A DNA stretch of 64,000 bases from a virus (IMGVR_UViG_3300029305_006221:64001-128000), one strand, 5' to 3'. Counted from the stretch's first letter, positions 4,590-57,008 are shown. Notes: generated by a model not told the origin, from the letters alone. Numbers and translations are program-made.

Positions 4590-5759
4590 TTGGATTACGA
4601 TAATACTCAAGACCTTTTGGACATAGAAGACGAAGACTCGGCTCCTAACCAAGAGGCAGATATAATTGAAGACTAGATTGCGGCAGAGGATATTGAACAA
4701 ACTCTGCATTTAGACTATACTTTAAAAACTTGCGAAGAGCGCGCCGGTCTTGTTAATAAGATCGTAGAGCAAACTCCGGCGCAGAATCTTACAAATCGTT
4801 ATTTAGAAATATTAGGCGATTATATAATGGGCGGCATTACAAAAGAAGAAAAGAAGGGGCGCCAATACCTTACTACAAACCGCCTTATAACCATTAATAA
4901 GCGCGAAACCTCATACGAAGGATTAGCAGAAAAACTTGAAAATGGTGAAGATGGTATTTATAATTTAATCACTGATAATAAAAATATGTTTTTTCAATTA
5001 AAAGATCCTATTTCAGAGCGGGATATTGAAGAAATTCCTGGATTAAAAGAGCTGCGCGAAGAGATTGAAAAAGTAGAGGCGGCATGTAAAAGCGCCCGTG
5101 GCAAGAGAAAATATCTGTTAAAAAAACAATTAATTGAAATGCGTAAAGATCAATATATATTACGAAGTTCGGTGCGCCAGCCTGTGGTTGCGGCACCCTG
5201 CGCCAAAGGAGTAAATAAAATTGATTTGCACGTAGAATATTGGTTAGATGAAAATAGAATTCCACAAAGTAAAGGTGTAATATCTTTTTTTGATCCTAAG
5301 CATATTTCTGCAATTATGTGCAATTATAATGGATTAAAACTTGCTGTTAAAGATAAATTTTCTAGCGATTTTTATTTTCTTATGCTGGATTTTGATGAGC
5401 TATTGGACAAGGCGCTTAACAATGAACCTATATTTCGCGATATTGTCAATATGAAGTTTGATGGGATTCAGAATATTGATATACAAAAATATTTATTAAA
5501 AACATATAATAAAACCTACACCGTAGAATATATTTCAAACCTATGGCGCAATAAAATACCTAAATTAATAGCACAACAGGCGCAAATCGATTATGTTATA
5601 AAATACTATTAGTCACATAAAGGCGCCCGTTGGAAAAAATGTTCTTGTTGTGGGGTAACTAAACCCGCTCATACTTATTTCTATTCTAAAAATAGCAGTT
5701 CTAAAGATGGATGGTATAGTATGTGTAAAAAATGTCGTAATGCAAAGAATAAAAAATAA
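4590..5759 (+). CDS. hypothetical protein with a C-terminal zinc ribbon (CSCCG...CKKC), 389 aa with TAG as sense
   Basis: AAAGGAG RBS, then TTG at 4590 (ATG at 4572 also in frame). The frame is open to TAA 5757-5759 through two in-frame TAG codons (4683, 5610). This joins ORF-track ORF 4827..5612 to the downstream Cys-rich tail. Confidence 0.55.
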
Positions 5760-5845
5760 TTTAAACATATTATAAAAATTATTATAATAATATTTTTAAT
5801 TCTCTATAGAATAAATTATTTAATTAGAAAGGAGAATAAAATTGA

Positions 5846-7066
5846 ATGGCAACTTGTTTTTGTGATAAGTGTCAAAAGACAATGGATGAAGGATAGTTTT
5901 ATACCTATCATGATGGAACTAAAACTGAACTTTGTAAAAAATGTATGACACTTCATATTAATAATTTTGATGAGTCTACTTTTGTTTGGCTTTTAGAAAA
6001 AATGGATGTTCCTTACGTTCCTGGTGAATGGAATAGATTACGAGACAACGCAATGGCAAAAGCGAATGATGATCCTCGTAAATTAAATGGCATGTCTGTC
6101 TTTGGAAAATATTTATCTAAAATGAAACTGAAACAATTTAAAGATGCGCGCTGGGCGGATAGTGAGCGCCTATAGGCAGAGGCTGCGCAGAAAAAAGCTG
6201 CATCTGATGCAGAACTAGCAGAATTGGACGCAATGTATCAAGAGCAGTATGATAAAGGGGAAATTTCAGAAGCTTAGTATAGAACATTAGTAAGCACCAC
6301 TGCGCGAAATGCTAATTTTTATTCAAAGGCGCCATCTATAGCTTAGCCGATTGCGCCTGATACCAACTTTTTTGATGAAAATCAATTCTTAGATGATTCT
6401 GAGATCCCAGACCCCGCCGCGTCTTTAACATAGGAAGATAAAATAGCAATGGCTGTAAAATGGGGAAAGCTATACAAACCAAATGAATGGGTTATTCTTG
6501 AAACAGATTATACTAAAATGAAAAAATCATTTGATATTCAAGATGCGGACTCTGAAAATACCTTAATCCTTCTTTGTAAAACTAATTTAAAAGCTAATCA
6601 AGCTATTGACTGTGGAGATATTGAAGGTTATCAAAAACTTGCGAAAGTGGCAGAATCTTTGCGTAAAAGCGCAAAATTTACCGCTCAATAGAATAAAGAG
6701 GAAAAAGGAGATTTTGTTGACTCTGTTGGTGAATTAATAGCGTTATGCGAAAGAGATGGTTTTATTCCTAGATTCGCTACAGATATTCCTCAAGATAAAG
6801 TAGATATGACTTTAAAAGATATGAATGAATATGTGCGCAAATTGGTTACTCAAGACCTTGGTTTCGGACAGCAAATAGAAGATTCTTTAAAAAAGATTAT
6901 GCTTCAAAATGAAATGAATAAAGAGGCGGAAGAGCGTCAAATGGAAGAGGGCGACGATTATGATCCATATGCGCCAAATGAATTGGCTGATGAAGATTTA
7001 ATTGATTATTATGATGAAATTATGAGTCAAAAAATACAAGATAAAAATATTTATACTGAGGTATAA
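5846..7066 (+). CDS. hypothetical protein with an N-terminal zinc ribbon (CFCDKC...CKKC), 406 aa. Possibly a terminase small subunit or DNA-binding protein
   Basis: AAAGGAG RBS, then ATG 5846 with an in-frame TGA just upstream. Open to TAA 7064-7066 through about 7 in-frame TAG codons. Joins ORF-track ORFs 5945, 6449 and 6806, all in frame 2. Sits immediately upstream of terL. Confidence 0.55.
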
Positions 7067-7069
7067 GAT

Positions 7070-8815
7070 ATGGCGCTACAAGATTTATTAGACCTTACTC
7101 TTGATAGAGGTCAACAAAAAATAGGCTTATCAGAAGAACGCGTTAGGGCGCAATTACCTATAGTCCGCCAGTATGTTGCCTATTGGCGTGAATATCCAGA
7201 TATGTTTGTAGAGTTTCTTTGTGGTCCTAACCCAGAAAATTTTTAGCTTTTCTTTTATTAGCGTCTTTTCCTTAGAGCAGTGATGCGTCATAGATATGCC
7301 TATGCGACGTTTCCAAGAGCCTATTCAAAGAGCTTTTTATCAGTTCTTGTATTGATGCTTAGATGTATTTTATATCCAGGTAGTCATTTATTCGTCACTA
7401 CGGGCGGAAAAGAGCAAGCAGCAGGAATTGCTAAAGAGAAAAGTGATGAACTTTGCAAGCTAATTCCAGGCTTGCGAAACGAGTTAGATATGACAAGAGG
7501 TAAGACTAAAACAAGTAAAGATAACATTGAATTAATATTTAAAAATGGTTCAAAACTTGATATTATGGCAGCGCGCCAGTCTTCGAGAGGTAAGCGTGCT
7601 ACTGGCGGACTTATGGAGGAGTGTATCTTAATTGACTAGACGCTACTGAATGAAGTAATAATTCCCACCCTTAATGTCGACAGGCGATTGGCAGATGGTA
7701 GTCGTATAGAATCGGAAACTGTAAATAAGAGCTAGATCTACGTAACAACAGCGGGTTGGAAAAACAGCTTCGCATATGAAAAACTTATAGAGCTTCTTAT
7801 CCGTTAGATTATATACCCTGATGAAGCCGTTGTTATGGGCGGAACCTGGCGTATTCCAGTTATGGAAAAGCTACTGAAAAAGAGTTTTATTGATGAGCTA
7901 AAGCTTGACGGAACATATAATGATGCATCGTTCTCAAGAGAGTATGAGTCTGAGTGGAGCGGCGATGCTGAGAATGCATTTTTCTCAGCTGAAAAATTTG
8001 ATAAGCACAGGTCGCGCCTATTGCCCGAGTATGAGTATTCAGGCAAAATCTCAAAGAATGGATACTATGTCTTAGGTGTCGACGTAGGTAGATTTAAATG
8101 TACAACCGAGGTTTGTGTATTTAAGGTCTCGCCCCAGGCGCAAGGCGCCGCTATTAAGTCACTTGTTAATCTCTACTCTTATGAAGCAGAGGACTTTGAA
8201 GCACAAGCGATTAAGATTAAAAAATTATTTTACAAATATCGCGCGCGAGTAGCGGCAATCGACGCCAATGGTCTTGGCGCAGGATTAATAGACTTTATGA
8301 CCAAGGCGCAAGAGGATCCTGAATCAGGTGAGTACTTACCTCCTTTTGGAGTGGCTGGAGGAACTTCAGATGAATTCAATGAGCAATATAAGAAGATTAA
8401 AGGCGCAGGAGTGGAAGAGGATGCTATGTATTTAATTAAGGCTAATGCACCTATTAACACAGAAGCTCATACCTATGTACAAACCTAGCTTGTTGGTGGT
8501 AAAATTTAGTTCCTAATTGATGAAGTTACGGCTAAGAACAAGCTTATGACAACCAAGGTGGGACAGGAGATGGATGCTGATAAGCGTGCAGAATATTTAA
8601 AGCCATTTACTTTAACCACTATTTTGCGTGAGCAGCTTTTAAACCTTGTAGAAGACAACGAAGGAACTAATATTATTCTAAAACAATCTTCTCGTAGTAT
8701 TCCTAAGGATAAGTTTTCTGCTTTTGAGTATGGTTTGTATTATATTAAACAAGAAGAAGAGCGATCTAAAAAGAGAAAAAAGAGAAATATATCTCAAATG
8801 ATGTTCTACTCATAA
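7070..8815 (+). CDS. terL: terminase large subunit, 581 aa with 7 TAG codons read as sense
   Basis: MALQDLLDLTLDRGQQKIG... continues through TAG into ORF-track ORFs 7280, 7835 and 8546, all in frame 2. ATPase and nuclease regions typical of large terminases. No TAA or TGA until 8813-8815. Confidence 0.8.
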
Positions 8816-8889
8816 CTAAAATTTTAGGACATTTTTTAATAAAATCGTTATTACAATTTTTATATAACAATAGTAAAGGAGTGAGAAGT

Positions 8890-9246
8890 ATGAAAGCAAG
8901 TCGAGGAGAAATTAAAATATATGATATTTTAACAGCTGAAGGAGTTTCTTTTAAAGAAGAATATTCTTTTCCCGATCTTGTCAGTCATTCTAAAACACCA
9001 CTTCGTTTTGACTTTGCAGTGCTCGACGATGAGGGTGAGGTTGATTTTTTAATTGAGTTTCAAGGAATTCAACATTATGAACCCAAGTCTAAATTTGGTG
9101 GAATCGCTGGATTACGCACTTAGCAGTATTATGATATGCTTAAGAGGGAATACTGTAAAAAACACCGTATTCCCTTAGTTATAATTCCTTATACAGATGA
9201 AAGTATTATAACCTATGATTATATCTTTACTGCCGCGGGTTATTGA
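8890..9246 (+). CDS. DUF559/Vsr-like (PD-(D/E)xK) endonuclease-domain protein, 118 aa. Free-standing homing-endonuclease-like gene between terL and portal
   Basis: AAAGGAG RBS, then ATG 8890. Motif RFDFAVLDDEGEVDFLIEFQGIQHY. One in-frame TAG (9121). Ends at TGA 9244-9246. Confidence 0.5.
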
Positions 9247-9298: not shown

Positions 9299-10891
9299 TT
9301 GGACAGAATGGAAGAAATTCGTAAAAAAGGTTTTGACATGAGCACCCCAAGAAGTATCCCAGTCGAAGGAAATGTTATCCCAGAAATGGAATATGCTAAA
9401 ATGAAAGTTGGAATTAAATCTCTTAATGATGCGGTTATGAATTTAGGCGCATATAAGAAAATTAATCCACAAATGACTAAAGAAAATATTCTGCAGGCGA
9501 TAGCGCGCGGAGATATTGAAACTATGCGAAGCGCCTCAGAGTTTTACTTTAAAATTAGTGGTATTTATTCTAGACTTTGTAAACATTTAGCTAATTTTTA
9601 TAGATATGACTGGACAATTACTCCTTTTACTCCATCAGATAAAGTTACACCAGATAAAATAATTGACGGCTTTAATAAAAGTAGTTATTATTTAAATGAA
9701 TTTGGAGTAAAAGAATTTTTTAGTGAAGTAGCTTTAAAAGTAATGCGCAGAGGATGCTATTATGGATATATTATTCAAGATGGCGATACGGCGCAAATTT
9801 AGGAGCTATTGCCTAAATACTGTAGAGTAAGATATAGCATTAAAGGTAGACCTGCAGTAGAATTCAATATGAAATTCTTTGATGATGAATTTAAAAATGT
9901 TGATTATCGAATGAGAGTCTTGGCAATGTGGCCAAAAGACTTTTAGAAAGGTTATATTGCTTTTAAAGAGGGAAAATTGATACCCGATTTTCCTGGGGAT
10001 ACAGCGGGATGGTATTTGCTTGATATTGAGCATACTTTTAAATTTAATATTAATAATGAAGATTATCCGCCTTTTGTTTCGGTAATTCCACATATTATAG
10101 ATTTGGATGCTGCACAAGAGTTAGATAGAAAAAGAATGGCGTAGAAACTATTAAAAATTATCATTCAAAAAATGCCATTAGATAAAAATGGTGAATTGAT
10201 ATTTGATGTGGATGAAGCGCAAGAACTTCATAATAATGCAGTTAAGATGCTGGGCAAAGCAATTGGTATTGACGTACTTACAACTTTTGCAGATGTTGAA
10301 GTTGCAGATATGGCAGATACTCAAGCCGCAGCAAGTATGGATGAATTGGAAAAAGTTGAAAGATCTGTTTACAATGAATCTGGTACTGCACAAAATTTAT
10401 TTAATACTGATGGCAATATTGCGTTAGAAAAAAGTATTCTTGATGATGAGGCAAATATTTATGGACTCATTCTTCAATTTGAAACATTTTTAAATTATCT
10501 TATTAAACCTTTTAATAAAAATCCAAAAAAGTTGTATTATAAAGTAAATATACTTCCTACAACTATTTATAATTATAAAGATATGTCAAAACTTTATAAA
10601 GAACTTAGCGCAACTGGTGGCTCAAAACTACTTTCAAGTGTTGCTTTAGGGCAGTCTCAAGCTGGTGTAATTGCAACTGCTAAGTTTGAAAATGAAGTTC
10701 TTGATGTAACTGGATTATTCACTTCTAAATAGGCGCAAGAAGAACATAAGGCTAAGATATAGCCTGCTAACACCTAGCCTTCAGGCGCACAATAGGATAA
10801 ACCTGTTGAAAAAAAGAAAACCGGTCGTCCAGAAAAAGCGGATGATCAAAAGTCTGAAAAGACTATTCAAAACAGAGAAGCTATGAGCTGA
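9299..10891 (+). CDS. portal protein, 530 aa with about 8 TAG codons read as sense
   Basis: TTG start at 9299 (next in-frame ATG at 9308). ORF-track ORFs 9299..9802 and 10172..10732 are joined in frame 2 through TAGs. Ends at TGA 10889-10891. Size and position (after terL, before scaffold and capsid) fit a portal. Confidence 0.6.
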
Positions 10892-10907: not shown

Positions 10908-12314
10908 ATGCACAAATCTGTTGCAACGATAAACTCTCCTGAGTTTATCAACTTAACCCCACTTGATATCAATCCTCTTATGAGCGCTTGCGAAATCAAG
11001 GTTCTTTATATTGGTGAAAATAGGAATAGATCCTATATTACCAAAGAAGTAGCCACAGATATGGCGAAAACGCTTAGAGGCGCGCCAATTGTTGGCTATT
11101 ATAAAGAAGAAAAAGAAGATTTTCGAGATCATGGAAAAGAAGTCATCATTGATGATGAGGGTATCAAGTTTAATTGCAAAACTGTTCCTTACGGTTTTGT
11201 AGCTCCAGATGCAAAGGTATGGTTCCAAGAGTTCCAAGATACCAATGATTTTGGAGAAAATATTTTGAGAGAATATCTAATGACTACTGGATATTTGTGG
11301 ACTGGTCAATTTGAAGAATGTAAGTCTGCCGTTGAGAGTGATGGCAAGCCGCAATCAATGGAATTAGATGAAGATTCTTTACAAGGACACTGGGAAACAA
11401 ATACTCGTGGCATGGATTTCTTTATTATAAATGACGCAATTTTTTCAAAACTTTGCATTTTAGGTGATGACATTAAGCCTTGTTTTGAGGGAGCTAGTGT
11501 AACAGCACTAAATGTTAGTGCGTCTTTTACTAAAGTTGATGATAACTTTAGACAAACATTATTTACGATGATGCAGGATTTAAAAACTGCATTAGAAGGA
11601 GGTCAGCAAATGATAGACACAATCGTCGATCCTGTTGTTGTCGAAGAGCCGGTTGTTGAGCCTGCTGCAGAACCTGTAGTTGAGTCAGTAACTGAGCCCA
11701 TTGATGGCGCAGAACCTTCATCTGCTGCATCTGAAGAGCCTGTTGTTGAAGAAGCGCCTATCGCTGTTGAAGAACCGGTAGCTGAGCCTGTTGCTGAGGA
11801 GCCTGTAGCTGAACCAGCGGTTGAGCCAGAGCCTATTGTAGAACCTACTCCAATAGATCCTGAACCAACTCCCGCGCCTTCTATTGAAGAACAGTATACG
11901 GCATTGCAAGAAACTCTTGAAACAGTAAGAGCTGAATATTCTGCTCTTGAGTCTCAGTATAGTGAGCTTCAATCTAGATACACAGAGCTTGAAACTGCAC
12001 ATGCAGAACTTGTTGAATTTAAAAGACAAAGTGACGATGCAAAGAAAGATGAAATGATTAATAAATTCTATATGCTTAGCGATGAAGATAAGGCAGAAGT
12101 CATTTCTAACAAAGCTAATTACACTGTAGAAGATATTGAAGAAAAACTTTCTGTAATTTGTTTCAGAAAAAAGGTCAATTTTGATTTAGAGGATTCCTCT
12201 AAAAATAATAATAAAATAGAGCAGCCAGCTGTGACATTTAATGTGTCTGATCCTGGTGCTTCAAAACCTGAGTGGCTTATTGCAGTTGAAAATGTAATGG
12301 CTAAAAATATTTAA
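10908..12314 (+). CDS. scaffolding-like or minor head protein with a Glu/Pro/Val-rich repeat linker and a C-terminal coiled coil, 468 aa
   Basis: Intact ORF with no TAG. Repeats of the EPVVEPAAEPVVE type followed by heptad-like ALESQYSELQSRYTELE. Confidence 0.5.
   Translation: MHKSVATINSPEFINLTPLDINPLMSACEIKVLYIGENRNRSYITKEVATDMAKTLRGAPIVGYYKEEKEDFRDHGKEVIIDDEGIKFNCKTVPYGFVAPDAKVWFQEFQDTNDFGENILREYLMTTGYLWTGQFEECKSAVESDGKPQSMELDEDSLQGHWETNTRGMDFFIINDAIFSKLCILGDDIKPCFEGASVTALNVSASFTKVDDNFRQTLFTMMQDLKTALEGGQQMIDTIVDPVVVEEPVVEPAAEPVVESVTEPIDGAEPSSAASEEPVVEEAPIAVEEPVAEPVAEEPVAEPAVEPEPIVEPTPIDPEPTPAPSIEEQYTALQETLETVRAEYSALESQYSELQSRYTELETAHAELVEFKRQSDDAKKDEMINKFYMLSDEDKAEVISNKANYTVEDIEEKLSVICFRKKVNFDLEDSSKNNNKIEQPAVTFNVSDPGASKPEWLIAVENVMAKNI
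11627..11880 (+). repeat. imperfect tandem ~15-nt coding repeats (GAGCCTGTTGTTGAA-like) encoding the EP(V/A)VE linker
   Basis: Visible as reiterated gagcctgt(t/a)g(t/c)tga(a/g) units. Confidence 0.6.
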
Positions 12315-12338
12315 GTTTAATTAAGGAGGACATATAGC

Positions 12339-12869
12339 ATGGCTACTATTAAGCGTATTGGATTTGGTCAGGTAGAGCCTAACCATCTATCCGCTCAAAG
12401 AAACGGTCAGGTTTACGCATCTCTCCCTTGTAACAAGGATATTAAGATCCTTGAGAATGGTCAGTTCGTAAAATATGACTATGCTACAAACGGTGGCGAA
12501 ATTAACTTTACTGGCAAGGGCGAGTGGATGCTCGTTATGAATGAAGTAAAGCTTTATGATGATTCTTGGAGAGAGTCTTACAAGGATTTTGCTCTTCAAG
12601 CTGATAATTTTAATGGTGGTGTAATGGCGCCAAGAGTTCTTAAGACTATGCCTGGTGACATTTATACTACAAACTGCCTTGAGGGCGCAAATACCTCTGG
12701 CAAGGCTGTTTTTGAAGGTACTGAGGAAATCGACGTTGGTACTGAGCTTAAGATCAATGATGAAGGATTCCTTTCTACTGCAGGAACTAGCGATATCGTA
12801 TTCCAAGTTGTTAAAGTTTACACAATGCCTGACGGTCAACAGGGCGTTAAGGTAATGCGTATTAAATAA
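12339..12869 (+). CDS. head protein, possibly a decoration or minor capsid protein, 176 aa
   Basis: Intact ORF with no TAG. Strong AAGGAGG RBS. Lies between the scaffold-like gene and the major capsid gene. Confidence 0.45.
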   Translation: MATIKRIGFGQVEPNHLSAQRNGQVYASLPCNKDIKILENGQFVKYDYATNGGEINFTGKGEWMLVMNEVKLYDDSWRESYKDFALQADNFNGGVMAPRVLKTMPGDIYTTNCLEGANTSGKAVFEGTEEIDVGTELKINDEGFLSTAGTSDIVFQVVKVYTMPDGQQGVKVMRIK

Positions 12870-12886
12870 TAAGGGAGGGAATAATA

Positions 12887-13939
12887 ATGGCATTAAATAG
12901 AAATAGTTTATTTACATTAGCACACAAAGTTGCTGACGCTAATCCTTCTGCTCCCGTTGCTTATTCTTTCGAGAATAAGAACTATAGTTATGCAGATCTT
13001 GATAACACTCTTCGTGAAGAGCTTAATAGTCTTATTGGAACGTATGCTCTTTGGAGAGAGAATCACAATATTGTATTCGCACTTATGGAGGAAATTATCA
13101 CAGATAAGCTTCCTGCTAAGGTAATGCAGCAATATGGCGCATTTGCTGAAGTTAAAACATATAGACAAGGCGAAAAACCAATCTTTACACAGAAGATCAC
13201 AGAAGCTTCTCGCAGACGTGCAAAGCAGTTTATTGCAATGCCTGCAGGACTTGCTGGTCGTTACGAAGTATTCAAACTTGATGGACGTAGCTACGAAGTT
13301 AAGACTTCTGCTATGGCTGCTGCTTGTCAGATCGCTATCGAGGAATATCTTGATGGACGTGTTGACATGGCTACTCTTATCGACATCGTTATGGAAGGTA
13401 TGGATGATAGAATCTATGCTGAGATAGCAAGTTGTCTAATTGCTGCTGTTGATACAATTCAGCCTGCAAACAAGTTTGAAGGCGCAAGTTTCATCGAAGC
13501 TGAAATGGATTCTCTTCTTGCCGTAGCTGACTCTTATGGAAATGGTAGATCTACAATTTATTGCACTTTTGAGTTTGCTTCGCAAATGCTTCCTGATAAT
13601 GCTTGGGAAAAGGGCAAGATGTCTGACTCTATGAAGGACGAGTACTGGGCAAATGGTAGACTTGCAGGTTATAAGGGTCACCAAGTAATTGTTCTTCGCC
13701 AGTCTTATGTTGACGAGACCAACTCGAAGAAAGTTATTGATCCTGCATACGCATGGATTATTCCTGGCGGAGCTGAGAAGCCTATTAAGATTGCCTTTGA
13801 AGGCGATACAATGATTAAAGAAGAGGACAATGACGACTGGTCTAAGAGCATCCATTTCTATAAGAAAGTCGGAGTTGCCACAATGATTAATAATGATATT
13901 TGTGTTTATAAGAACACATCTCTCACTATTGATAGATAA
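12887..13939 (+). CDS. major capsid protein, 350 aa
   Basis: Intact ORF with no TAG. GGGAGGG RBS. Typical size and position. Followed by a strong terminator. Confidence 0.6.
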   Translation: MALNRNSLFTLAHKVADANPSAPVAYSFENKNYSYADLDNTLREELNSLIGTYALWRENHNIVFALMEEIITDKLPAKVMQQYGAFAEVKTYRQGEKPIFTQKITEASRRRAKQFIAMPAGLAGRYEVFKLDGRSYEVKTSAMAAACQIAIEEYLDGRVDMATLIDIVMEGMDDRIYAEIASCLIAAVDTIQPANKFEGASFIEAEMDSLLAVADSYGNGRSTIYCTFEFASQMLPDNAWEKGKMSDSMKDEYWANGRLAGYKGHQVIVLRQSYVDETNSKKVIDPAYAWIIPGGAEKPIKIAFEGDTMIKEEDNDDWSKSIHFYKKVGVATMINNDICVYKNTSLTIDR

Positions 13940-13959
13940 TTAATAAACTGAACTTTAAC

Positions 13960-13995
13960 GAGGGAAGTGAAGGAAACTTCCTTCCCTCTTAATTT
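13960..13995 (+). terminator. rho-independent terminator after the capsid gene
   Basis: GAGGGAAG-tgaaggaaacttc-CTTCCCTC then TTAATTT. Confidence 0.6.
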
Positions 13996-14022
13996 CAAAA
14001 GGAGATAAAAGGAGATTATTAT

Positions 14023-14598
14023 ATGATAGCTAACACAGATAAAATTAGAGTTGAAAATAGGGCTAATGCAATTGTTGCATATGTAGTTCCAGAGTCTAAT
14101 ATAATTAGACGTTTTGTTCCAGGAGAAACTAAAGAGATTACTATGAATGAATTGCGCCAAGCTGTTCAAATACCTGGAATTTATCGTTTAATTGAAAGCA
14201 ATTTAATTATTCACAGTAAGGAAGCGGCTGATGAACTTCTTCCTGGAGTAGAGCCTGAGTATTTTTATAATGCAAAAGATGTAGATTATCTACTTGAGCG
14301 CGCAACCCTTGATCAATTAAGAGATGCTCTTGATTTTGCGCCTGAAGGCGTTGTTGAACTTATTAAGGAAAGAGCTGTAAAAACTAAACTTAATGACGTT
14401 CGTAAAAGAGAAATTATTCTTGAGCAAACTAATTTCGATGTAACAAAAGCAATAGAAATTCAACATCTAAGTGAAACAGAAATAAAAACAGAAACTAGAA
14501 CAAGACGTGCTGCGCCTTTGACAGAAGAGGCTCAAAATAACGAGCCTGAGATGCCGGTTAGACGCGCTGCCGCACCTAAATATACCGTTATAAAATAA
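14023..14598 (+). CDS. hypothetical head-associated protein, 191 aa
   Basis: Intact ORF with no TAG. Ends at TAA 14596-14598. Confidence 0.5.
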   Translation: MIANTDKIRVENRANAIVAYVVPESNIIRRFVPGETKEITMNELRQAVQIPGIYRLIESNLIIHSKEAADELLPGVEPEYFYNAKDVDYLLERATLDQLRDALDFAPEGVVELIKERAVKTKLNDVRKREIILEQTNFDVTKAIEIQHLSETEIKTETRTRRAAPLTEEAQNNEPEMPVRRAAAPKYTVIK

Positions 14599-14615: not shown

Positions 14616-15092
14616 ATGCCAATAGCATCAACACCTTTTTCCGCAGTATATGATAAATTTTTATCAAAAGTAACTGATGATATGTATATGGAGCTTACTG
14701 TTGAAGAAACTAACAATCTTCTTTTTGAGTTGCTTCAAAGTGCATTACCTTGGTTTGAGTTTCCACGTGTAGATTTGAGTGCTAGAACTGATACTGAATT
14801 TTTAGTTTAGCTATCAGAAGAAGAGCTGAATATTATTGCTACTTATATGATTGTTGAATGGATGGGTCAATAGTTAGCAACTATTGAATTAATTCGAATG
14901 AAATATAGCGGTAGTGATTTTAAGTTTACATCTTAGGCAAATCATATGCATAAGCTTAAAGATTTGCAAAAAGAATATGAAAGAAAAGGATTTCATTTAC
15001 AAAGATTATACAAGCGGAGAAAAGCAGATAGTAAAGGTATTATGAGATCTACTTTTGGTAGTATTATGGAGTCTTCTTTTAAGGGGGACTAA
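14616..15092 (+). CDS. head-tail connector or adaptor-like protein, 158 aa with 3 TAG read as sense
   Basis: AGGAGG RBS, then ATG 14616. Open through TAG at 14808, 14871 and 14934 to TAA 15090-15092. Confidence 0.45.
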
Positions 15093-15095
15093 TTA

Positions 15096-15407
15096 ATGAT
15101 ACTAAAATATGGATTTGATATAGAATTAGAGGCGATTAAAGCCAATCTTGCTCGTCTTACTAATTAGATATATAAGTTATTGCCATTACGCGAAGAGGGA
15201 CATGATTGGCAAAAACCTCTTGAAACGATAATGGAAGAGCTTGCAGGAATGGATAGGTTATTTCTCGATCAATAGTCTAATCTTTATAAATTAACCTGTA
15301 AGTTAGAAGGATTGTTTTCCCTTGAAGCAAAAAGTGATTTTATGCTATATCGCGGAGTTATTTTTGAATGCTTGGGAATAATAGGAGAATTATAGAAATG
15401 TCTTTGA
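15096..15407 (+). CDS. hypothetical structural protein, 103 aa with 3 TAG
   Basis: ATG 15096 four nt after the upstream stop. Ends at TGA 15405-15407. Confidence 0.4.
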
Positions 15408-16342
15408 ATAATTTGAAAGCTAGACTTAATTATTATGGCGGCAAGTAGTAGGTAGATCGAATGATTGAGGATAAAGAGCGTAGTTTTAGAAATTCTCTAT
15501 GGCGCGCTTATCAATCAGCCACTGCAGTATTACAAGATGGTAGAGAGTTTAGATGTTTAATAAATCCAAATAAACTTAGCATGGAACTAGATGATAAAAT
15601 GTTGTCTATTCCATTTAAAGATATATGTTTAAATAAGGCGCCGGGCGCCGATGGTAAAACTTCAGTTGCCAAAGAAGATATAGGAGTAAAATGTGGAGAT
15701 GTTATTACTTGGAAAGAAAATAATACACATTGGATCGTGTATTCATAGTATTTACAAGAAGTAGCATATTTCAGAGGACTAATGAGAGAATGTGAGAATG
15801 AGCCATTAACTATTAATGGTAAAGATTATTACTATTATCTTAAAGGACCTGATGAAAAAGGTATCGATTGGCAAAAAACTAAGCATTTTGTTTTTAATGA
15901 ACTTAATTATAATATAGAAATTTATATTTCTAATGATTAGATAACAAATTAGTTCTTTCAAAGATTTAAAAAATGTAATATAAAAGGAAAACCTTATGAA
16001 GTATAGGCAGTAGATAGACTTACTACAGAAGGTATTTTAACAATTTACTTAAAAGAAGATTTTGGCAATAATTGGGAGCAAACAGATATTATTGAAGAGC
16101 CAGATGATTCTTTAATTATTGGTCCTAAAGAAGTTTATCCTTTTGATATAGTTTCATATTCTATTCAAGATTAGAGTGATGGAACTTGGTCGATTAGTAA
16201 TAAACGAGCGTCAATTATTGAATAGGATGGTTCTTTTGTAAAAATTGAAATCATCACTGGAAAAAGTGGAGATTTTAGTTTAATATATAAAAAAGACGGT
16301 ATTGAAGATATTGTAAAAAATATTAAAATACTATCATTGTGA
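15398..16342 (+). CDS. hypothetical structural protein, 314 aa with about 8 TAG
   Basis: ATG 15398 overlaps the upstream gene. Frame 2 is open through ORF-track ORF 15461..15748 to TGA 16340-16342. Confidence 0.45.
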
Positions 16343-16359
16343 GATAAAAGGAGCGTATT

Positions 16360-16944
16360 ATGAAGAGAGATTTAGTTTTAACATAGCCTATTACATCTTC
16401 ATTTTTATCTTGTGAAAAAGACACTGAATTGATATTGCGAAAACTTTTTGTTGAAAGCAGACCTTATAGCGATATTTTAAAAAGATTATTAGTGCTACCG
16501 GTTAAAGATTGTATTAGTAATTTTGAAAATATTGAATATAAGCAAAAAATTGATTCTATGTCCGTAGCAAAGCTAAGAGAAGATGGATATATAGTTCTTG
16601 AACCTCGTCTACCTTTTTACGAACATGAAGAAATAAAGTCTTATATTATATTAAGTTTTGATCATTTTACACCTAACGCAAACAATCCTGAATTTAGAGA
16701 TTGTACTGTAAATTTTGATATTATATGTCATACCAAGCATTGGGATTTAGGAAATTTTCAAATGCGTCCTTTAAAGATAGCTGGCTATATAGATGGTATT
16801 TTAAATAGAAGCAAGCTTTCTGGAATAGGAGAGTTTAATTTTCTAGGATGTAAAGAATTAGTTATTAATCAAGACTTTTCTGGATATTTATTATCATATA
16901 GGGCTATTCATGGATCAGATGACTAGATAATAAATGAAAAATAA
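16360..16944 (+). CDS. hypothetical structural protein, 194 aa with 2 TAG
   Basis: AAAAGGAG RBS, then ATG 16360. Includes ORF-track ORF 16429..16926. Ends at TAA 16942-16944. Confidence 0.5.
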
Positions 16945-38786: not shown

Positions 38787-38799
38787 GGAGGAATAAATA

Positions 38800-43736: not shown

Positions 43737-43800
43737 AAAGCCACTTGAGTTTGAAAGTGATAACTCAAGAATTTAATACTTGAAAAGGAGATAGTATATT

Positions 43801-44589: not shown

Positions 44590-45689
44590 TGGGATTTAAT
44601 GAAAAAATGACTACATTAGCAGATGAAGTGAGAACGCTAAGTGGCGCTACTGAGGAAAAGAGTCTTGATGATTTAATATCTGATACTACTGCGGCTAATA
44701 GTGAGGTTGATGCGCAGACCGAGTTAATTGAACAGATTATGACTGCGCTTGATGGTAAGGCTGGCGGCTCAGGAGGAACAGTTCTTCCTACTCTTGATAA
44801 TCCTGCAAGTGCTACAGACATTCTTAGTGGAAAAGAAGCTATTGATGGTGAAGGTAATAAGATTACTGGTTCAATTGCTACTAAAACATCAAGTGATTTA
44901 ACTGCAAGCGGTTCTACGGTTACGGTTCCCGCAGGATATTATGCAAGTAACGCAAGTAAGTCTGTAGCTACTGTTACTCAAGCAACTCCTACAGTGTCGG
45001 TTAGCGCCAGTGGTTTAATTACAGCAAGTGCCACACAGAGCGCGGGATATGTAGCTTCAGGAACTAAGAGTGGAACTAAACAATTGACCACTAAAACAGC
45101 GACCACTTATACTCCTACTACTTCGAATCAAACAATATCAAGTGGAATTTATTTAACTGGCACTCAGACTATTAAAGGCGATGCAAATCTTAAAGCTGAA
45201 AATATTGCTTCTGGAGTTAGCATTTTTGGAGTAGCTGGAACTCATAGCGGAAGTGAAAATCTTGATACTGAATTAACTGAACAAGAAAGTTTAATTTCAG
45301 AGTTAAGCACTATCTTAGATAGTAAAGCAAGCGGAGGCTCTGGTGGAGGGAGCATAGAGACTTGCACTGTAACTATAAGCAGCAATTCATCATTTAATGG
45401 TATTTGGATTATATTTTATAATTCTTTAGAAAATAATTCCATTATAGGAAAAAAAAGTGACTTCCTTCTTAATTCTACATCTACAATAACTGTTAATGCG
45501 CTACAAGGCTCTGTAATTACCATAGTTGCTTTCGACATAGGGGTTTTTAACGACTATGGTATGAGTAATTGTAGTGTTTCCAATGGAGGCAATTTGTTAC
45601 ATGTGATGCAAGATTCTGTAAATATTGTAAATGTCGGTCTTGTAATCCAACTACCAAATGAAAACGATTGTACTATAACCTGTAGTTAA
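44583..45689 (+). CDS. receptor-binding-protein paralogue A, 368 aa with no TAG. Contains GGSGG linkers
   Basis: Intact ORF. The module ATQATPTVSVSASGLITASATQSAGYVASGTKSGTKQL...TIKGDANL is paralogous to the 46096..47151 gene. Confidence 0.5.
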   Translation: MVMGFNEKMTTLADEVRTLSGATEEKSLDDLISDTTAANSEVDAQTELIEQIMTALDGKAGGSGGTVLPTLDNPASATDILSGKEAIDGEGNKITGSIATKTSSDLTASGSTVTVPAGYYASNASKSVATVTQATPTVSVSASGLITASATQSAGYVASGTKSGTKQLTTKTATTYTPTTSNQTISSGIYLTGTQTIKGDANLKAENIASGVSIFGVAGTHSGSENLDTELTEQESLISELSTILDSKASGGSGGGSIETCTVTISSNSSFNGIWIIFYNSLENNSIIGKKSDFLLNSTSTITVNALQGSVITIVAFDIGVFNDYGMSNCSVSNGGNLLHVMQDSVNIVNVGLVIQLPNENDCTITCS

Positions 45690-45707
45690 TAAGGAGGTAA
45701 ATAAATA

Positions 45708-46076
45708 ATGTCAAATAAAACAAGATTACAAACAAATAACACCAACCTCCAAGCACTTATAGATAAGGCAAACGCACTTCCTGATGCTGGCGGAGGTTCT
45801 GGCGGAGGAGGAGACTTGGAAACTTGTACTCTTACATTATCCAGTATGGGCGTACCCACGGGCGACGAAATAGTTTATTATATAGATGACACTTTAACGC
45901 TTCAACAATCTAGTTTTCCCGCCTTTAGACAGAGTAAATCTGTAATCGTTATGAAAAATAGTATAATTTTTGTTGAATATGCGTCTGAGATCTCTGGAAG
46001 CATCGCTTCAATTGGTACTGGTACAAGTCATCAAGGATTTTTTATTTCGGGTGATGCAACTTTATCGAAAGGATAA
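45708..46076 (+). CDS. receptor-binding-protein paralogue B (short), 122 aa with no TAG
   Basis: N-terminus MSNKTRLQTNNTNLQALIDKANALPDAGGGSGGGG resembles the N-terminus of 46096..47151. Confidence 0.5.
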   Translation: MSNKTRLQTNNTNLQALIDKANALPDAGGGSGGGGDLETCTLTLSSMGVPTGDEIVYYIDDTLTLQQSSFPAFRQSKSVIVMKNSIIFVEYASEISGSIASIGTGTSHQGFFISGDATLSKG

Positions 46077-46095
46077 TGTAAAGGGGGATTAACAA

Positions 46096-47151
46096 ATGTC
46101 AAATTATAATACGCAATTACAAGCAAACAATTCCTCTTTGGAGGAAATTATAACACAGCTTAATGAGTTGCCCGATGTGGGAGGTACCGACCCTATTCTT
46201 CAAGATAAAACAGTAACTCCTTCAACGAGTCAGCAAACGGTAACTGCAGATAGCGGATATGATGGATTAGATACGGTAACTGTTAATGCAATGCCTACGG
46301 CTACACAGGCAACACCGAGTATTACTGTTAATTCAAGTGGACTGATTACTGCAACTGCAACTCAGACTGCTGGTTATGTGGCGGCAGGTACTAAATCTGC
46401 AACTAAACAGTTAGCATTTCAAGCTGCGCAAACCATTATCCCTGGTACAACTAATCAGACAATTGCATCTGGACAGTATTTAACTGGGGTGCAAACTATT
46501 AAAGGCGATGCTAATTTAGTAGCGAGCAATATCGTAAGTGGCAAGAGTATTTTTGGAGTGGTTGGTACTGCTAATAGTGGAGGTGGAAGTAGTGGCGGAG
46601 ATACAAGTGCAGAAGATGGACTAGTAACTAGAACTTTGACGACTTATACAAATGATAGAGTAACAACTATTGGAAATTATGCGTTTTATTCTTGCTCAAG
46701 CCTTACAAGCGTAAGTTTTCCACAATGTACAACTATTGGAGACTATGCGTTTCGATATTGCTCAAGCCTTACAACTGTAAATTTTCCAGCGGTTACAACT
46801 ATTGGTGCTTCTGCCTTTGTAGGTTGTTTAAAACTTGCGGGAGTGAGCTTTCCAGCAGTTACAGCTATTAACCTCGCTGCATTCCAAAACTGTTCAAACC
46901 TTACGACTGTAAGTTTTCCAAAAATTACAAATATTAGTTCTTACGCATTCCTACGTTGTTCAAAACTTGCTTCTATTTATCTTGCTGCATCTACAGTATG
47001 TTTTTTAGAAGGCTCAGACGCTTTTTCACAAACTAGTATCTGGTCAAACAAAGGCTCAATCTTCGTTCCGGCCTCCTTACTTGCTTCTTATAAAGCTGCA
47101 ACTAACTGGGTTTTCTTTTCAAATAGAATTTTTTCATATAACTTCACATAA
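46096..47151 (+). CDS. receptor-binding-protein paralogue C with a C-terminal BspA-type leucine-rich repeat domain, 351 aa with no TAG
   Basis: Intact ORF. Five or more tandem LRR units of the type TIG(N/D)YAF..CS.LT.V.FP. Shared module with 44583..45689. Confidence 0.55.
   Translation: MSNYNTQLQANNSSLEEIITQLNELPDVGGTDPILQDKTVTPSTSQQTVTADSGYDGLDTVTVNAMPTATQATPSITVNSSGLITATATQTAGYVAAGTKSATKQLAFQAAQTIIPGTTNQTIASGQYLTGVQTIKGDANLVASNIVSGKSIFGVVGTANSGGGSSGGDTSAEDGLVTRTLTTYTNDRVTTIGNYAFYSCSSLTSVSFPQCTTIGDYAFRYCSSLTTVNFPAVTTIGASAFVGCLKLAGVSFPAVTAINLAAFQNCSNLTTVSFPKITNISSYAFLRCSKLASIYLAASTVCFLEGSDAFSQTSIWSNKGSIFVPASLLASYKAATNWVFFSNRIFSYNFT
46680..46960 (+). repeat. tandem ~69-nt coding repeats encoding the BspA-like LRR units
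   Basis: Reiterated ...tgctcaagccttacaa(g/c)(c/t)gtaa(g/a)ttttcca.. units. Confidence 0.6.
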
Positions 47152-47183
47152 TATTTAAAAGAGATAAAAGGAGATAAAAGGAA

Positions 47184-48164
47184 ATGAAATTACAAATTTT
47201 AGTACCTCAGTATAAAGAAACGGAAGATATTATTAAACCATTACTTGATAGTATTGAGGTTCAACAAAATGTAAACCTAAAAGAAGATGTTGGTGTCATT
47301 ATAGTAAATGATGGCACTGATGTCCATCTATCAGAAGACTTCTTTAAGAGATATTCTTTCCCAATTGAGTATCATCTCAATGAACATAAAGGTGTTTCTG
47401 CAACTCGTAATGCTTGTCTTGATAAAGCAACTGCAGATTATGTAATGTTCTGTGATGCAGATGATATGTTCTACAATGCTTGCGGCTTATACATCATCTT
47501 CCGTGAAATAGAGAATGGTGGCTTTGATAGTTTAGTATCTGCATTCATTGAAGAGTCTCATATTCCAGATACTAAAGAACCGCTTTATATCAATCACGAT
47601 ATGGATTCTACTTTTGTGCATGGAAAAGTGCATCGTAGACAATACCTTATTGATAATAATATTCGTTGGAATGATAAGTTGACGATTCACGAGGATAGTT
47701 ATTTTAATTGTCTATGTCAGAGACTTGCAAAAGAGTTGAAGTATTCTCAGACTTCATTCTATTTGTGGCGTTGGCGCGATGCTTCGGTTTGCCGCCATGA
47801 TCCAAAGTATATTTTAAAAACCTATAACAATATGCTTGATAGTAATGATGCTCTTGTAACTCAATTCTTAAATCGCAAGAGAAAAGAGGATGCTCAATTC
47901 TATGTAGTAGGCATGATTTATGATGCATATTTCACAATGAATAAAGACGAGTGGCTAAATCAAGAGAATAAAAATTATCGTTATGCAACGGAGAGACGCT
48001 TTAAGGAGTATTGGCTAAAGTATAAAAAGTTGCATGATGAAATTCCTCAAGATATAAAAGCTCAGATTATTATGGGAATTAAGAATCGGATGTATGCTGA
48101 AGGTATGGTACTTGAAACGCTTACTTTTAACGAGTGGATTAAGCAAGTTGAAGCAATGGTGTAA
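47184..48164 (+). CDS. family-2 (GT-A fold) glycosyltransferase, 326 aa with no TAG
   Basis: Motifs VGVIIVNDGTD, CDADD (DxD) and ATRNACL. AAAGGAG RBS. Confidence 0.7.
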   Translation: MKLQILVPQYKETEDIIKPLLDSIEVQQNVNLKEDVGVIIVNDGTDVHLSEDFFKRYSFPIEYHLNEHKGVSATRNACLDKATADYVMFCDADDMFYNACGLYIIFREIENGGFDSLVSAFIEESHIPDTKEPLYINHDMDSTFVHGKVHRRQYLIDNNIRWNDKLTIHEDSYFNCLCQRLAKELKYSQTSFYLWRWRDASVCRHDPKYILKTYNNMLDSNDALVTQFLNRKRKEDAQFYVVGMIYDAYFTMNKDEWLNQENKNYRYATERRFKEYWLKYKKLHDEIPQDIKAQIIMGIKNRMYAEGMVLETLTFNEWIKQVEAMV

Positions 48165-48205
48165 AAACAAGATTTAACAGAACCCCAATTTTTTACAATG
48201 GAGGG

Positions 48206-48520
48206 ATGATAATGACTACAACTATTATATTATTGATAATAACGTCCATTTTTAACATAATTGATTATTGCCAAACAGCATACGCCATAGGACTTTTTGG
48301 ACTTGGCGTTGAGCTCAATCCAATAGGGCGCCTTATGTTTGCAGCCGATTGTGGATGGCTAAAATTAATTATTATGCCAATTTTATTGTTAGCTCTTGGC
48401 CTTATTATTAAAGCTGATAAGAGGCTGTCTTGGGAGGCTTGGCTTGTGACAATATTGTATCTTATAGTTATTATAAATAATTTTTATATGTTAATACGAG
48501 CGGGAGTATTTTTCTTCTAA
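48206..48520 (+). CDS. small polytopic membrane protein, 104 aa with 3-4 predicted TM helices. GtrA/flippase-like or holin-like
   Basis: Hydrophobic segments IILLIITSIFNII, IIMPILLLALGLII and LVTILYLIVIINNFYML. Immediately downstream of the GT2 gene. Confidence 0.45.
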   Translation: MIMTTTIILLIITSIFNIIDYCQTAYAIGLFGLGVELNPIGRLMFAADCGWLKLIIMPILLLALGLIIKADKRLSWEAWLVTILYLIVIINNFYMLIRAGVFFF

Positions 48521-55419: not shown

Positions 55420-56124
55420 ATGGAAAATTTAAAGAAAATGAAAGAATGTCTTATTGGCGTTGCTGAAGGACAAGTTTATGGAAACCTTGAAAAAGTCAAT
55501 GCTGAAGAGCTTGGCGAAGTAATGGATATGATTAAAGACCTTTCTGAAGCTGTTTACTATTGCACTATAACAGAATCAATGGAAAAGCAAGCTAATGAAG
55601 AAAAAGGCAGTATGCCTATGTATTATTCTCCATACCCAGCAGAAATGTATGATCCTCGTTATGATGAGAGATATTATCCTGGCACTATGTATGCGCAAGG
55701 CGGCAATAGTGGTGGCAGAGGCTCTTCATCAAATGGTGGTAACGGCGGTCGTTCTTCTGGTGGAAACAATGCTCGCGGAGGCGGCACTAGAGGATATATG
55801 GATGGAATGATCAGACGCTATGATGACGGACAAACATCCTACTCTATGTATAATGATGGAGGAGCTTCTTCATATTCTATGTATCATGAACCTATGCCCT
55901 ATATTTATAGAGACGGTATGATGCAGGACCCAAGACATGCAATGATGCGCGACCCTAAAGAAGGAAGAAGCGGTGAGCGCCGCAAGATGTATATGGAAGG
56001 AAAAGGACATCATGACAAGTCCAAACAAATGCAGGAACTTGAATCTTATATGCAAGAGCTTGCAAATGATATGACTGAAATGATTCAAGATGCATCTCCA
56101 GAAGAGAAACAACTTCTTCAATAG
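55420..56124 (+). CDS. Tyr/Gly/Met-rich low-complexity protein, 234 aa. Spore-coat-like composition
   Basis: Intact ORF. Reads ...MYYSPYPAEMYDPRYDERYYPGTMYAQGGNSGGRGSSSNGGNGGRSSGGNNARGGGTRGYMDG... Confidence 0.5.
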   Translation: MENLKKMKECLIGVAEGQVYGNLEKVNAEELGEVMDMIKDLSEAVYYCTITESMEKQANEEKGSMPMYYSPYPAEMYDPRYDERYYPGTMYAQGGNSGGRGSSSNGGNGGRSSGGNNARGGGTRGYMDGMIRRYDDGQTSYSMYNDGGASSYSMYHEPMPYIYRDGMMQDPRHAMMRDPKEGRSGERRKMYMEGKGHHDKSKQMQELESYMQELANDMTEMIQDASPEEKQLLQ

Positions 56125-56156
56125 AAGATCTCTATGTTAGCATCTAAAGTAAAATA

Positions 56157-56480
56157 ATGTTTACTATTAATGGAGAATATTGGTAGATAGTTTTAGTTTA
56201 TCCATACGACGTTGCACTTTTAATGCCAAATGGTAGATATGCTTTAGGAGCGTGTAATGATACTACTAAAACTATCTATATCAGTAATGCGCTTCATAGT
56301 GAGATGTTTGAGCAGGTATTGTGTCATGAATTAGTACATGCCTCAATGTTTGCGTATAATGTCCTGTTAGAGCACGATGAAGAGGAGTTAATTGCAGAAA
56401 TTATTTCTGTGTTTGGAGAGGAGATTATAGACATTACTGATATGATGTTTGAAAGAATAAAAAGAGGAAGATATAGATAA
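56157..56480 (+). CDS. ImmA/IrrE-family-like zinc metallopeptidase (HEXXH) small protein, 107 aa with 1 TAG
   Basis: ATG 56157. An in-frame TAG at 56184 joins it to ORF-track ORF 56223..56480. Motif TIYISNALHSEMFEQVLCHELVHA. Confidence 0.45.
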
Positions 56481-56495
56481 TATATCTTCCTCTTT
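56461..56495. terminator. bidirectional palindromic terminator between two convergent genes
   Basis: AAAGAGGAAGATATA-gataa-TATATCTTCCTCTTT, with the TAA of the ImmA-like gene in its loop. Confidence 0.6.
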
Positions 56496-56498
56496 TGT

Positions 56499-57008
56499 TT
56501 ACCATTCCAAAGCTGCGGTATAATCTTTTTCTTTTTTAGGATTAAGATAGGCATGGCCTATGCATACGGCATCTGCTATATCATCATTGGTTAAAGATAG
56601 ATTATATGTTTTATTTGCGAAATCAATATCTTTTTGCTTTTTCTATTCTCGTTTAGAGCTGCGTCCATCTTCTATGCCACATACTGAGCGCCAAGAGCTA
56701 GGATAAATCATTTCAATCTATACCTCTGGATGTTTATCGTGCATTTCAATATGAATTAATGCCTATAAATACATTAATGCACGAAATGTATTTGTGTTTT
56801 TACTATGATCTGGAATAACTTCTTCCATTACAATCTAATTAATTCCTAGCTAATCTACGACAGCTAGAATATTGTCCACCATTTTATGTATTCTTTTATA
56901 TAGATCTGTAGATGAAGAGGTAATACAAGCCTATCCAATTAATTCTTTATCTTTAAAAATTGCAATTCCTGTTGCTTTAGTTGAAGCATCTAATGCCAAT
57001 AAGTACAT
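56499..57008 (-). CDS. RuvC-like Holliday-junction resolvase, 169 aa with 6 TAG read as sense. Absent from the ORF track
   Basis: GGAGGTG RBS, then ATG at 57008. Reads MYLLALDASTKATGIAIFKDKELIG(TAG)ACITSS... The LALDASTKATGIAIF segment resembles the RuvC catalytic N-terminal motif. No TAA or TGA until 56501-56499. Confidence 0.65.

Follow-up and report, generated by a model that had tools for sequence, protein, structure and literature searches.

Introduction

Reassignment of the amber codon TAG to glutamine (Gln) in the late genes of gut phages is already established (10.1101/2021.08.26.457843), with proteomic validation (PMC9523058), and the NCBI taxonomy lists a 'Caudoviricetes code 15 clade'. 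Here we analyze amber recoding in a 64,000-nucleotide stretch of viral DNA (IMGVR_UViG_3300029305_006221:64001-128000). The whole of this stretch is referred to as the window, and its coordinates are used unless another contig is named. An earlier note, made from the sequence alone, had proposed that TAG is a sense codon throughout the late genes of the window.

The described phage closest in architecture is phAss-1 (Babkin et al. 2023, PMC10607447; GenBank OQ749652), a 136-kb member of the proposed Phassvirus group with a tape-measure protein of 3149 aa. It has 36 tRNAs, suppressor tRNAs with a CUA anticodon among them, TAG in 41 open reading frames (ORFs), and no dedicated aminoacyl-tRNA synthetase (PMC10607447). 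The 'Agate' clade, from animal-gut sources, has genomes of 154 +/- 27 kb; code 11, TAG recoding, and TGA recoding all occur among its close relatives, with structural and lysis genes carrying most of the recoding (Borges et al., 10.1101/2021.08.26.457843). Code 15 crAss-like and Lak phages read TAG as Gln in their late genes within standard-code hosts, with metaproteomics for the crAss-like phages (Peters et al. 2022, PMC9523058).

The window is best explained as the virion and late module, with flanking replication genes, of a siphovirus-type phage of ~135 kb with an SPbeta-like head-tail module. Orthologues in its relatives match Pfam YonG_N, YonD_N, YonB, YomW, YomV, and YomU_Tube, and the PHROG matches and gene order of the window agree with these assignments; a local Pfam scan gave no match for most virion proteins of the window, including the Yon and Yom families. 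Its large terminase subunit (TerL) is 43-45% identical to those of Enterococcus phage H1 and Geobacillus virus E3. Both IMG/VR and public metagenome assemblies contain relatives of the window phage in abundance.

Results

Amber as a sense codon

Reading frames were re-derived from the raw sequence with TAA and TGA alone taken as stops. Once TAG is read as sense, the plus strand from 4566 to 56480 becomes a near-gapless array of genes. In that reading 95% of this region lies in ORFs of 100 aa or more, compared with 49% under code 11, in line with the recoding proposed in the earlier note. When TGA or TAA was reassigned as a control, ORFs of the same minimum length covered 51% and 57% of the region, respectively. 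The joined frames of the 39 plus-strand genes were searched for TAA and TGA, codons that would speak against recoding; their 16,356 codons include 206 in-frame TAG and not one TAA or TGA. The other two frames of these genes carry TAA and TGA at 0.04 and 0.12 per codon.

TAG never terminates a gene of the window phage. The stops of all 53 called genes are TAA (40) or TGA (13), as had been claimed for the recoded genes, and in the early regions the ORFs that end at TAG are only out-of-frame overlaps inside larger genes. The tape-measure gene (21085..30588, plus strand) is a single frame of 3167 codons, as described before, with 69 TAG where about 70 had been estimated and no TAA or TGA; the chance of a frame of this length free of TAA and TGA at the base composition of the window is ~1e-80. 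Its TP901-type core, earlier called intact, is matched as a complete PhageMin_Tail domain (PF10145, residues 194-399, full length, E 1.3e-30). Recounting also gave the earlier figures of seven in-frame TAG in terL (7070..8815, plus strand) and six in the minus-strand RuvC-like gene (56499..57008), and found the same pattern, with 38 TAG, in the 1649-codon gene at 30643..35592 (plus strand). The portal gene (9299..10891, plus strand) has seven TAG rather than the eight first given.

PHROG and Pfam matches span the TAG positions at full length, and in-frame TAGs are retained in independent related contigs. Coding density, full-length homology, and the persistence of TAGs in relatives together support amber as a sense codon in most late genes. 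The TAGs might instead be true stops, in a decaying or defective element, in an assembly or sequencing artifact, or in genes expressed as fragments or by rare readthrough. Such a reading would account for the break-up of the genes under the standard code and for the public PHROG families that match halves of TerL. It deserves next to no credence in view of the 16,356 late codons free of TAA and TGA, the TAG sites that are shared or swapped with Gln codons among independent contigs from different samples, and the full-length domain matches that run across TAGs.

Identity of the inserted residue

TerL has thousands of relatives, the best at 79-96% identity. The database proteins of these relatives had been translated with an alternative code, so that their Gln residues are uninformative, and the comparison was therefore made on DNA. 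Relative to the 95%-identical TerL gene of the related contig L002, four TAG sites are shared, and wherever just one of the two genomes has TAG the other has CAA or CAG (three sites in one direction and five in the other). About half of 82 related terL loci translated from DNA lack TAG altogether. The invariant Gln columns 64, 116, 222, 356, 414, 473, and 499 of TerL each have TAG in one to eight genomes. TAG64, TAG222, and TAG473 of the window fall in invariant or near-invariant Gln columns, and all three positions are Gln in Enterococcus phage H1 and Geobacillus virus E3, two isolates that use the standard code.

Alignment of every window gene with fetched relatives gave 57 window TAGs with at least five aligned residues. 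In the pooled alignment 41% of the residues opposite these TAGs are Gln, compared with a background of 3.7%. Columns with at least 80% consensus are Gln in 15 of 16 cases and Lys in the other (binomial p ~1e-20), and at a consensus of at least 60% there are 18 Gln, 5 Lys, 1 Thr, and 1 Tyr columns. Individual sites align with Gln in the YonG-like gene (TAG282, Gln in 99 of 101 relatives), the HNH-like ORF at 8881..9246 (a conserved Gln position, 77 of 81), the portal gene (TAG168, 79 of 81; TAG282, 81 of 81), the gene at 55420-56157 (TAG235, 12 of 13), and the RuvC-like gene (TAG82, 17 of 17). The TAG at codon 19 of NrdD is aligned with Gln in all 11 relatives, indicating that a replication-phase gene, too, uses TAG as sense. 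Within the limits of sequence comparison, TAG in the window is shown to be glutamine (genetic code 15). The earlier note had taken Gln as the usual case; the conserved columns, the exchange of TAG with CAA and CAG in the 95%-identical TerL gene, and the Gln residues of H1 and E3 now bear this out.

Suppressor tRNAs in the closest relatives

Neither ARAGORN nor Rfam detects a tRNA in the window, in agreement with the earlier failure to find one with a CUA anticodon there, and the Rfam scan of the window matched no other known RNA family. A phage-encoded suppressor tRNA had been predicted elsewhere in the genome. This prediction holds in the four closest lineages; for the window phage itself such a tRNA is expected by analogy with contigs of which none that was followed out to the tRNA site is more than 96% identical to it. 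To the right of the window, the 20-30 kb of Pol III and helicase-type genes in relatives contain no tRNA. To the left, JGI contig L007, which carries an identical copy of the protein encoded at 160-513, has a lone tRNA-Thr ~7 kb beyond the window edge, and the nearest IMG/VR relatives have an array of ~24 tRNAs starting ~17 kb to the left, none with a CUA anticodon.

In the closest relatives a separate tRNA(CUA) lies just upstream of a gene for a 632-aa GyrB-like protein, ~55 kb upstream of terL; in the nearest relative ~17.6 kb separate it from the end of the main tRNA array. It is present in IMGVR_UViG_3300029305_004519 (TerL 92% identical, 9 TAG in terL), in 3300029705_000054 and its sample-mates (TerL 89% identical, 8 TAG), and in 3300029305_002985. 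At the same site in 3300029305_005988 there is a tRNA whose anticodon loop is CUCUAAA by alignment and which ARAGORN mis-registered as having a 4-base anticodon. Copies were located at L287 9274-9349 (the same as L449 19213-19288), L298 9273-9347, L289 8371-8467 (the same as L451 19052-19148), and L450 18221-18319. The tRNAs of 004519, 000054, and 002985 score 48-59 bits with the Rfam tRNA model, for which the gathering score is 29. All four have G73; these three have a non-Watson-Crick 1:72 pair, and 005988 (L450) has U1:A72. The tRNAs lie on the replication-gene strand, flanked by intact standard-code ORFs.

Three builds of tRNA(CUA) were found at this one site. The first (76 nt) has a Gln-like D-arm, with the GCCAAGCGG..AAGGC sequence typical of tRNA-Gln. 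The second (75 nt) is closest to the phages' own tRNA-Trp, with CCA changed to CUA. The third (97-99 nt), seen in two of the tRNAs, has a variable arm of ~25 nt. A long arm might suggest that TAG means Ser, Leu, or Tyr in the long-arm lineage, an assignment that we reject on the ground that its few informative TAGs align with Gln.

Suppression could be supplied by the host, through a host amber suppressor or an altered host code, with TAG a sense codon and no phage tRNA involved. The lack of a tRNA in the 64-kb window is in keeping with this, and recoded phages with no detectable suppressor tRNA have been reported (PMC10607447). Host supply is nevertheless improbable. A tRNA(CUA) stands at the same site in all four of the closest lineages whose region was fetched, and the early genes and the tRNA neighborhood avoid TAG, as expected if infection starts in the standard code.

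The tRNAs also bear on whether TAG might have a meaning different from Gln, such as Glu, Lys, Tyr, Trp, Ser, or pyrrolysine. ARAGORN tags the CUA tRNAs 'Pyl', its default for every tRNA with this anticodon. The suppressor of one relative is nearest to tRNA-Trp, and two have a type II-like long arm. Five window TAGs lie in Lys-majority columns, and a sister lineage considered below has TAG at Glu columns. Against these points stand the Gln residues in 15 of the 16 strongly conserved columns, the exchange of TAG with no codons but CAA and CAG in near-identical genes, and the alignment of the informative TAGs of the long-arm lineage with Gln rather than Ser, Leu, or Tyr. The CUA tRNAs, moreover, differ from tRNA-Pyl in that their T-loops are canonical and the general tRNA model fits them. 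It is accordingly very improbable that TAG stands for another residue in the window. Pyrrolysine in particular is contradicted by the canonical form of the tRNAs, the occurrence of TAG at Gln positions, and the lack of pyl-like genes among the annotated genes of the window.

At the other GyrB-like loci among the 160 collected (80 from IMG/VR and 80 from metagenomes), which belong to more distant relatives, no CUA tRNA occurs at the site, and none was found in the metagenome relatives among the matches listed (at most 75% identity). Single tRNA(CUA) genes occur in far more distant relatives, at L452 9039-9111, L453 8841-8913, L454 10155-10227, and L457 12064-12139, where a 349-aa protein neighboring the tRNA is 34-38% identical; their presence indicates that amber suppressors are widespread in the wider group. 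Some tRNA-like genes of the arrays (L098 and L099 13779-13869; L100 16326-16400) have irregular anticodon loops, 'tgga' and 'ga' according to ARAGORN.

A motif search, the only kind made, found no credible release factor (GGQ) or class I aminoacyl-tRNA synthetase in any fetched locus, including ~100 kb of the nearest relative. The RF2-type or glutaminyl-tRNA synthetase gene that had been envisaged along with the suppressor is thus not borne out within the reach of that search.

Distribution of TAG among the genes

The earlier description of recoding in nearly every late gene was right about recoding itself and too broad about its extent: TAG is present in 25 of the 39 plus-strand genes and absent from 14. 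The TAG-free genes lie at 10908-14598, 17733-18635, 41795-48520, and 54653-55418. The claim that TAG follows gene timing and not strand likewise stood in part. It is upheld by the minus-strand RuvC-like and NrdD genes, which contain TAG, and contradicted by the plus-strand capsid, scaffold, tube, and fiber genes, which do not. The pattern is better described as most late genes, save those that encode the structural proteins of highest abundance and those of a probable host-range cassette.

In the plus-strand genes TAG makes up 31% of Gln-type codons (TAG, CAA, and CAG). This share rises to 40-60% in the connector, tape-measure, and fiber genes, where CAG is almost gone, and to 86% in the RuvC-like gene, the most heavily recoded of all. 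The TAG share falls as the GC content of a gene rises (Spearman rho -0.64) and as its CAG share rises (rho -0.76). These correlations fit a build-up of CAG-to-TAG transitions under AT pressure once a suppressor was present.

The two large TAG-free blocks are not the work of chance. In the head block (10908-14598) all 39 Gln-type codons are CAA or CAG (P ~5e-7, given the pooled TAG share), as are all 62 in the block at 41795-48520 (P ~9e-11). The head and tube genes of recoded relatives are also nearly TAG-free, with 0-3 TAG-containing columns compared with 9-35 in neighboring genes, and the tail tube gene has no TAG in any of 24 aligned relatives. The family of the first plus-strand gene (4572..5759) is among the most TAG-rich, with 35 TAG columns across relatives. 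The absence of TAG from the capsid, scaffold, and tube genes would be explained if incomplete suppression costs yield and is therefore avoided in these proteins. The block at 41795-48520 has a GC content of 0.34-0.40, compared with ~0.30 in its neighbors, and may be a host-range cassette recently acquired from a standard-code phage.

A sister lineage with TAG at glutamate positions

A sister lineage (L246, L447, L448, and L463; cluster P0121, 107 members), whose TerL is 64% identical to that of the window, places TAG differently. Its TAGs were examined at L246 2463-6608, L447 3392-7539, L448 5041-6786 and 16311-16784 (minus strand), and L463. Seven TAGs in terL are fixed, occupying the same codons in each of three independent contigs and in five cluster members. 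Over TerL and neighboring genes, 11 conserved columns with TAG are Glu in seven cases and Gln, Lys, Cys, and Ala in one case each, and the difference from the window in Glu versus non-Glu residues at TAG is significant (p = 4e-5). Conserved Glu positions are affected in TerL, in a sigma-like protein, and in a ClpP-like protein, whose TAG falls on the conserved Glu in the E-[YF]-G motif at the C terminus of solved ClpP structures. The lineage has no in-frame TAA, which argues against G-to-T sequencing damage as the source of the TAGs. From these alignments the sister lineage is a candidate for a code in which TAG is Glu; no phage described as having such a code came up in the literature searched.

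The gene order of the sister lineage also differs. At L447 5794-8084 and L448 5041-7331 terL is followed directly by minus-strand RuvC-like, dUTPase, NrdD, and Pol III genes. The structural block of ~47 kb between terL and the RuvC-like gene of the window lies elsewhere in the sister-lineage genome.

Some relatives have tRNAs with a UCA anticodon. One, at L450 2200-2275, is of normal length and lies inside a tRNA array. Others are 96-nt tRNAs labeled 'SeC' by ARAGORN (L330 and L331 176-271, L348 499-594, L400 27-123, and L421 176-271, all on the minus strand). Some members of the family may thus recode TGA instead of TAG. The absence of TAG from about half of the related terL genes, the presence of at least three suppressor builds at one site, the UCA tRNAs, and the TAGs at Glu positions raise the tentative idea, to which we give rather less than an even chance, that the meaning of amber is not fixed in this phage family and that its code has changed repeatedly by the swapping of a single tRNA cassette.

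Gene content of the window

The left end of the window (160..4457) holds small early genes on the minus strand, all TAG-free and all stopping at TAA or TGA. The first plus-strand gene (4572..5759, 2 TAG) matches PHROG 5767 ('sigma factor') and encodes a C-terminal zinc-ribbon/HNH-like tail; it has no Pfam match, and its putative sigma-factor role derives solely from the PHROG label. It is followed by a YonG-like gene (5846..7066, 6 TAG; PHROG 3314), whose orthologues in relatives have the YonG_N domain, and by terL. Between terL and the portal gene (PHROG 2739, E 3.5e-67) is the HNH/homing-endonuclease-like ORF (8881..9246, plus strand; PHROG 559 and 9084; 1 TAG).

Two PHROG families annotated as 'unknown function', 15503 and 24618, give stronger matches to TerL, at residues 16-234 and 351-578, than do the terminase families. 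They are probably TerL fragments that arose from standard-code gene calls on recoded phages.

The TAG-free head block (10908..14598, plus strand) encodes a scaffold-like (YonD-like) protein, a 176-aa protein, the YonB-like major capsid protein (12887-13939), and a 191-aa protein. Five head-tail connector or completion genes follow on the same strand (14616..17683; 3, 3, 8, 2, and 8 TAG), then the TAG-free YomU-like tail tube gene (17733..18635), whose orthologue in relatives matches YomU_Tube, and two genes upstream of the tape-measure gene (18702..20981; 11 and 1 TAG). The 1649-aa product of 30643..35592 is a tail fiber or spike protein with a C-terminal Peptidase_S74 chaperone domain. Five further plus-strand tail genes lie at 35681..41691 (2, 4, 3, 1, and 3 TAG).

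The more GC-rich TAG-free block on the plus strand (41795..48520) has seven genes. Their products include fiber-like proteins, a BspA-type leucine-rich repeat protein (46096-47151, Pfam LRR_5), a GT2 glycosyltransferase (47184-48164, Pfam Glycos_transf_2), and a small membrane protein. TAG-containing late genes resume on the plus strand at 48788-49282 (3 TAG), 49320-51005 (9), 51020-52888 (7), and 53100-53564 (6), with a small ORF at 53576-53825 (1). The stretch at 54653-55418 is free of TAG, and the last two plus-strand genes (55420..56480) have one TAG each.

The gene at 53862-54973, whose product of ~290 aa is rich in Gly and Cys, is interrupted by ~240 nt at about 53967-54208. The homologue in L010 (minus strand, 905-1780) is uninterrupted and lacks the insert. 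The inserted segment, which could represent a small self-splicing intron, folds more stably than shuffled controls (z = -3.75) and has no match in Rfam.

The minus-strand RuvC-like gene encodes a Holliday junction resolvase-like protein (PHROG 159, 827, and 1770). Beyond it, the minus-strand genes of nucleotide metabolism and replication (57091..64000) encode dUTPase, NrdG, NrdD, guanylate kinase, and, at the right edge, the C terminus of a Pol III alpha-like protein whose 1324-aa gene runs off the window. Except for the TAG at codon 19 of NrdD, these genes fit the standard code. The NrdD gene (59276-62350, minus strand) encodes 1024 aa, compared with 647 aa in relatives. The additional ~380 aa, which relatives lack, contain a weak Intein_splicing match and a LAGLIDADG-like motif and resemble an intein.

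Discussion

The best explanation of these results is that the window belongs to a code 15 phage in which TAG is Gln, with a phage-encoded amber suppressor tRNA and delayed translation of the late genes. We give this explanation as a whole a probability of about 0.88. A single phage tRNA (CUA anticodon, G73, unpaired 1:72) would decode TAG; judging from the closest relatives it would be encoded outside the window, among standard-code replication genes, and be transcribed with the early and middle genes. Host enzymes would charge it, as the relatives suggest. The replication genes and the tRNA region would be translated first, in the standard code of the host, and the terminase, portal, connectors, tape measure, tail proteins, putative late regulator, and RuvC-like resolvase would require the suppressor. 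Translation of the TAG-containing genes would wait for the tRNA to build up, and packaging, tail assembly, and lysis would be delayed, as hypothesized in the literature (10.1101/2021.08.26.457843). The rationale for such a delay is that early genes can be read in the standard code while late genes need the suppressor. The TAGs in the putative late regulator (4572..5759) and the heavy recoding of the RuvC-like resolvase, which is needed at packaging, fit this hypothesis.

Several observations weigh against this explanation. The suppressor tRNA of the window phage was not seen within the 64 kb, and the isoacceptor identity of the tRNAs in relatives is ambiguous, being Gln-like, Trp-like, or of the long-arm type. 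A minority of the window TAG columns are mostly Lys (five), Thr (one), or Tyr (one) in relatives. The timing of expression is deduced from gene function only. Finally, TAG shows no bias toward the 5' ends of genes (the distribution is uniform, Kolmogorov-Smirnov p = 0.36), where a pure translational gate might predict one.

Standard-code annotation of this contig would fragment the terminase, portal, tape-measure, and tail genes, and translation table 15 is needed. To a known phenomenon the window adds a codon-level demonstration, comparative in nature, that TAG is Gln, and the displacement of CAG by TAG in AT-rich late genes. It further adds abundant virion proteins and a fiber cassette free of TAG and, in the nearest relatives, a suppressor tRNA placed within the standard-code replication module. 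The distribution of TAG and the placement of the tRNA fit the published idea of delayed late translation without proving it. Standard-code phages stand beside TAG-recoded ones in this family, possibly with TGA-recoded and TAG=Glu ones as well, at protein identities of 60-90%, and this makes the family a good system for the study of how code changes arise. The candidate TAG=Glu lineage is the most interesting by-product of the analysis.

Hints to the host are weak. The S74 domain of the 1649-aa protein matches Roseburia phage Jekyll, and the ClpP of relatives resembles Butyrivibrio ClpP; related contigs fall in metagenome-assembled genome bins of conflicting taxonomy. The host may be a member of the Bacillota, perhaps of the Lachnospiraceae.

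Among the known recoded phages, the crAss-like phages (Crassvirales podoviruses) and the Lak megaphages belong to unrelated lineages and infect Bacteroidota, whereas the window phage is an SPbeta-like siphovirus whose host is probably one of the Bacillota. A resemblance to the Agate clade is suggested by a comparison of descriptions: the size class and the animal-gut origin are alike, and the family of the window phage also mixes standard-code, TAG-recoded, and UCA tRNA-bearing members.

The closest match is phAss-1, likewise a gut phage of ~135 kb with a tape measure of ~3150 aa. In both, TAG is Gln in the terminase, portal, tape-measure, and tail genes, and the relationship is to SPbeta-like and Enterococcus EF1-like phages. 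The nearest relatives of the window phage further resemble phAss-1 in having a large tRNA set with a suppressor tRNA(CUA) on the replication-gene strand and, as far as the motif search shows, no dedicated aminoacyl-tRNA synthetase. A difference lies in the suppressor itself: three CUA tRNAs are reported for phAss-1, of which the one inspected lies inside the array, whereas the nearest relative of the window phage has one, alone upstream of the GyrB-like gene. Membership of the Phassvirus group was considered and rejected. Members of one genus would be expected to have ~70% or more nucleotide identity genome-wide and a shared gene order that includes the Hoc-like protein of ~1700 aa. The two TerL proteins, however, are no more than 42% identical, a 24.5-kb megablast query found nothing among the INPHARED phages, and the 1649-aa protein has no detectable match in phAss-1. 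SPbeta (Spbetavirus), Enterococcus phages H1 and EF1, and Geobacillus virus E3 resemble the window phage in the virion module, to judge from the orthologues in its relatives, and, at ~135-140 kb, in genome size, but use the standard code. The window phage is a separate lineage within the same broad SPbeta-like assemblage as phAss-1.

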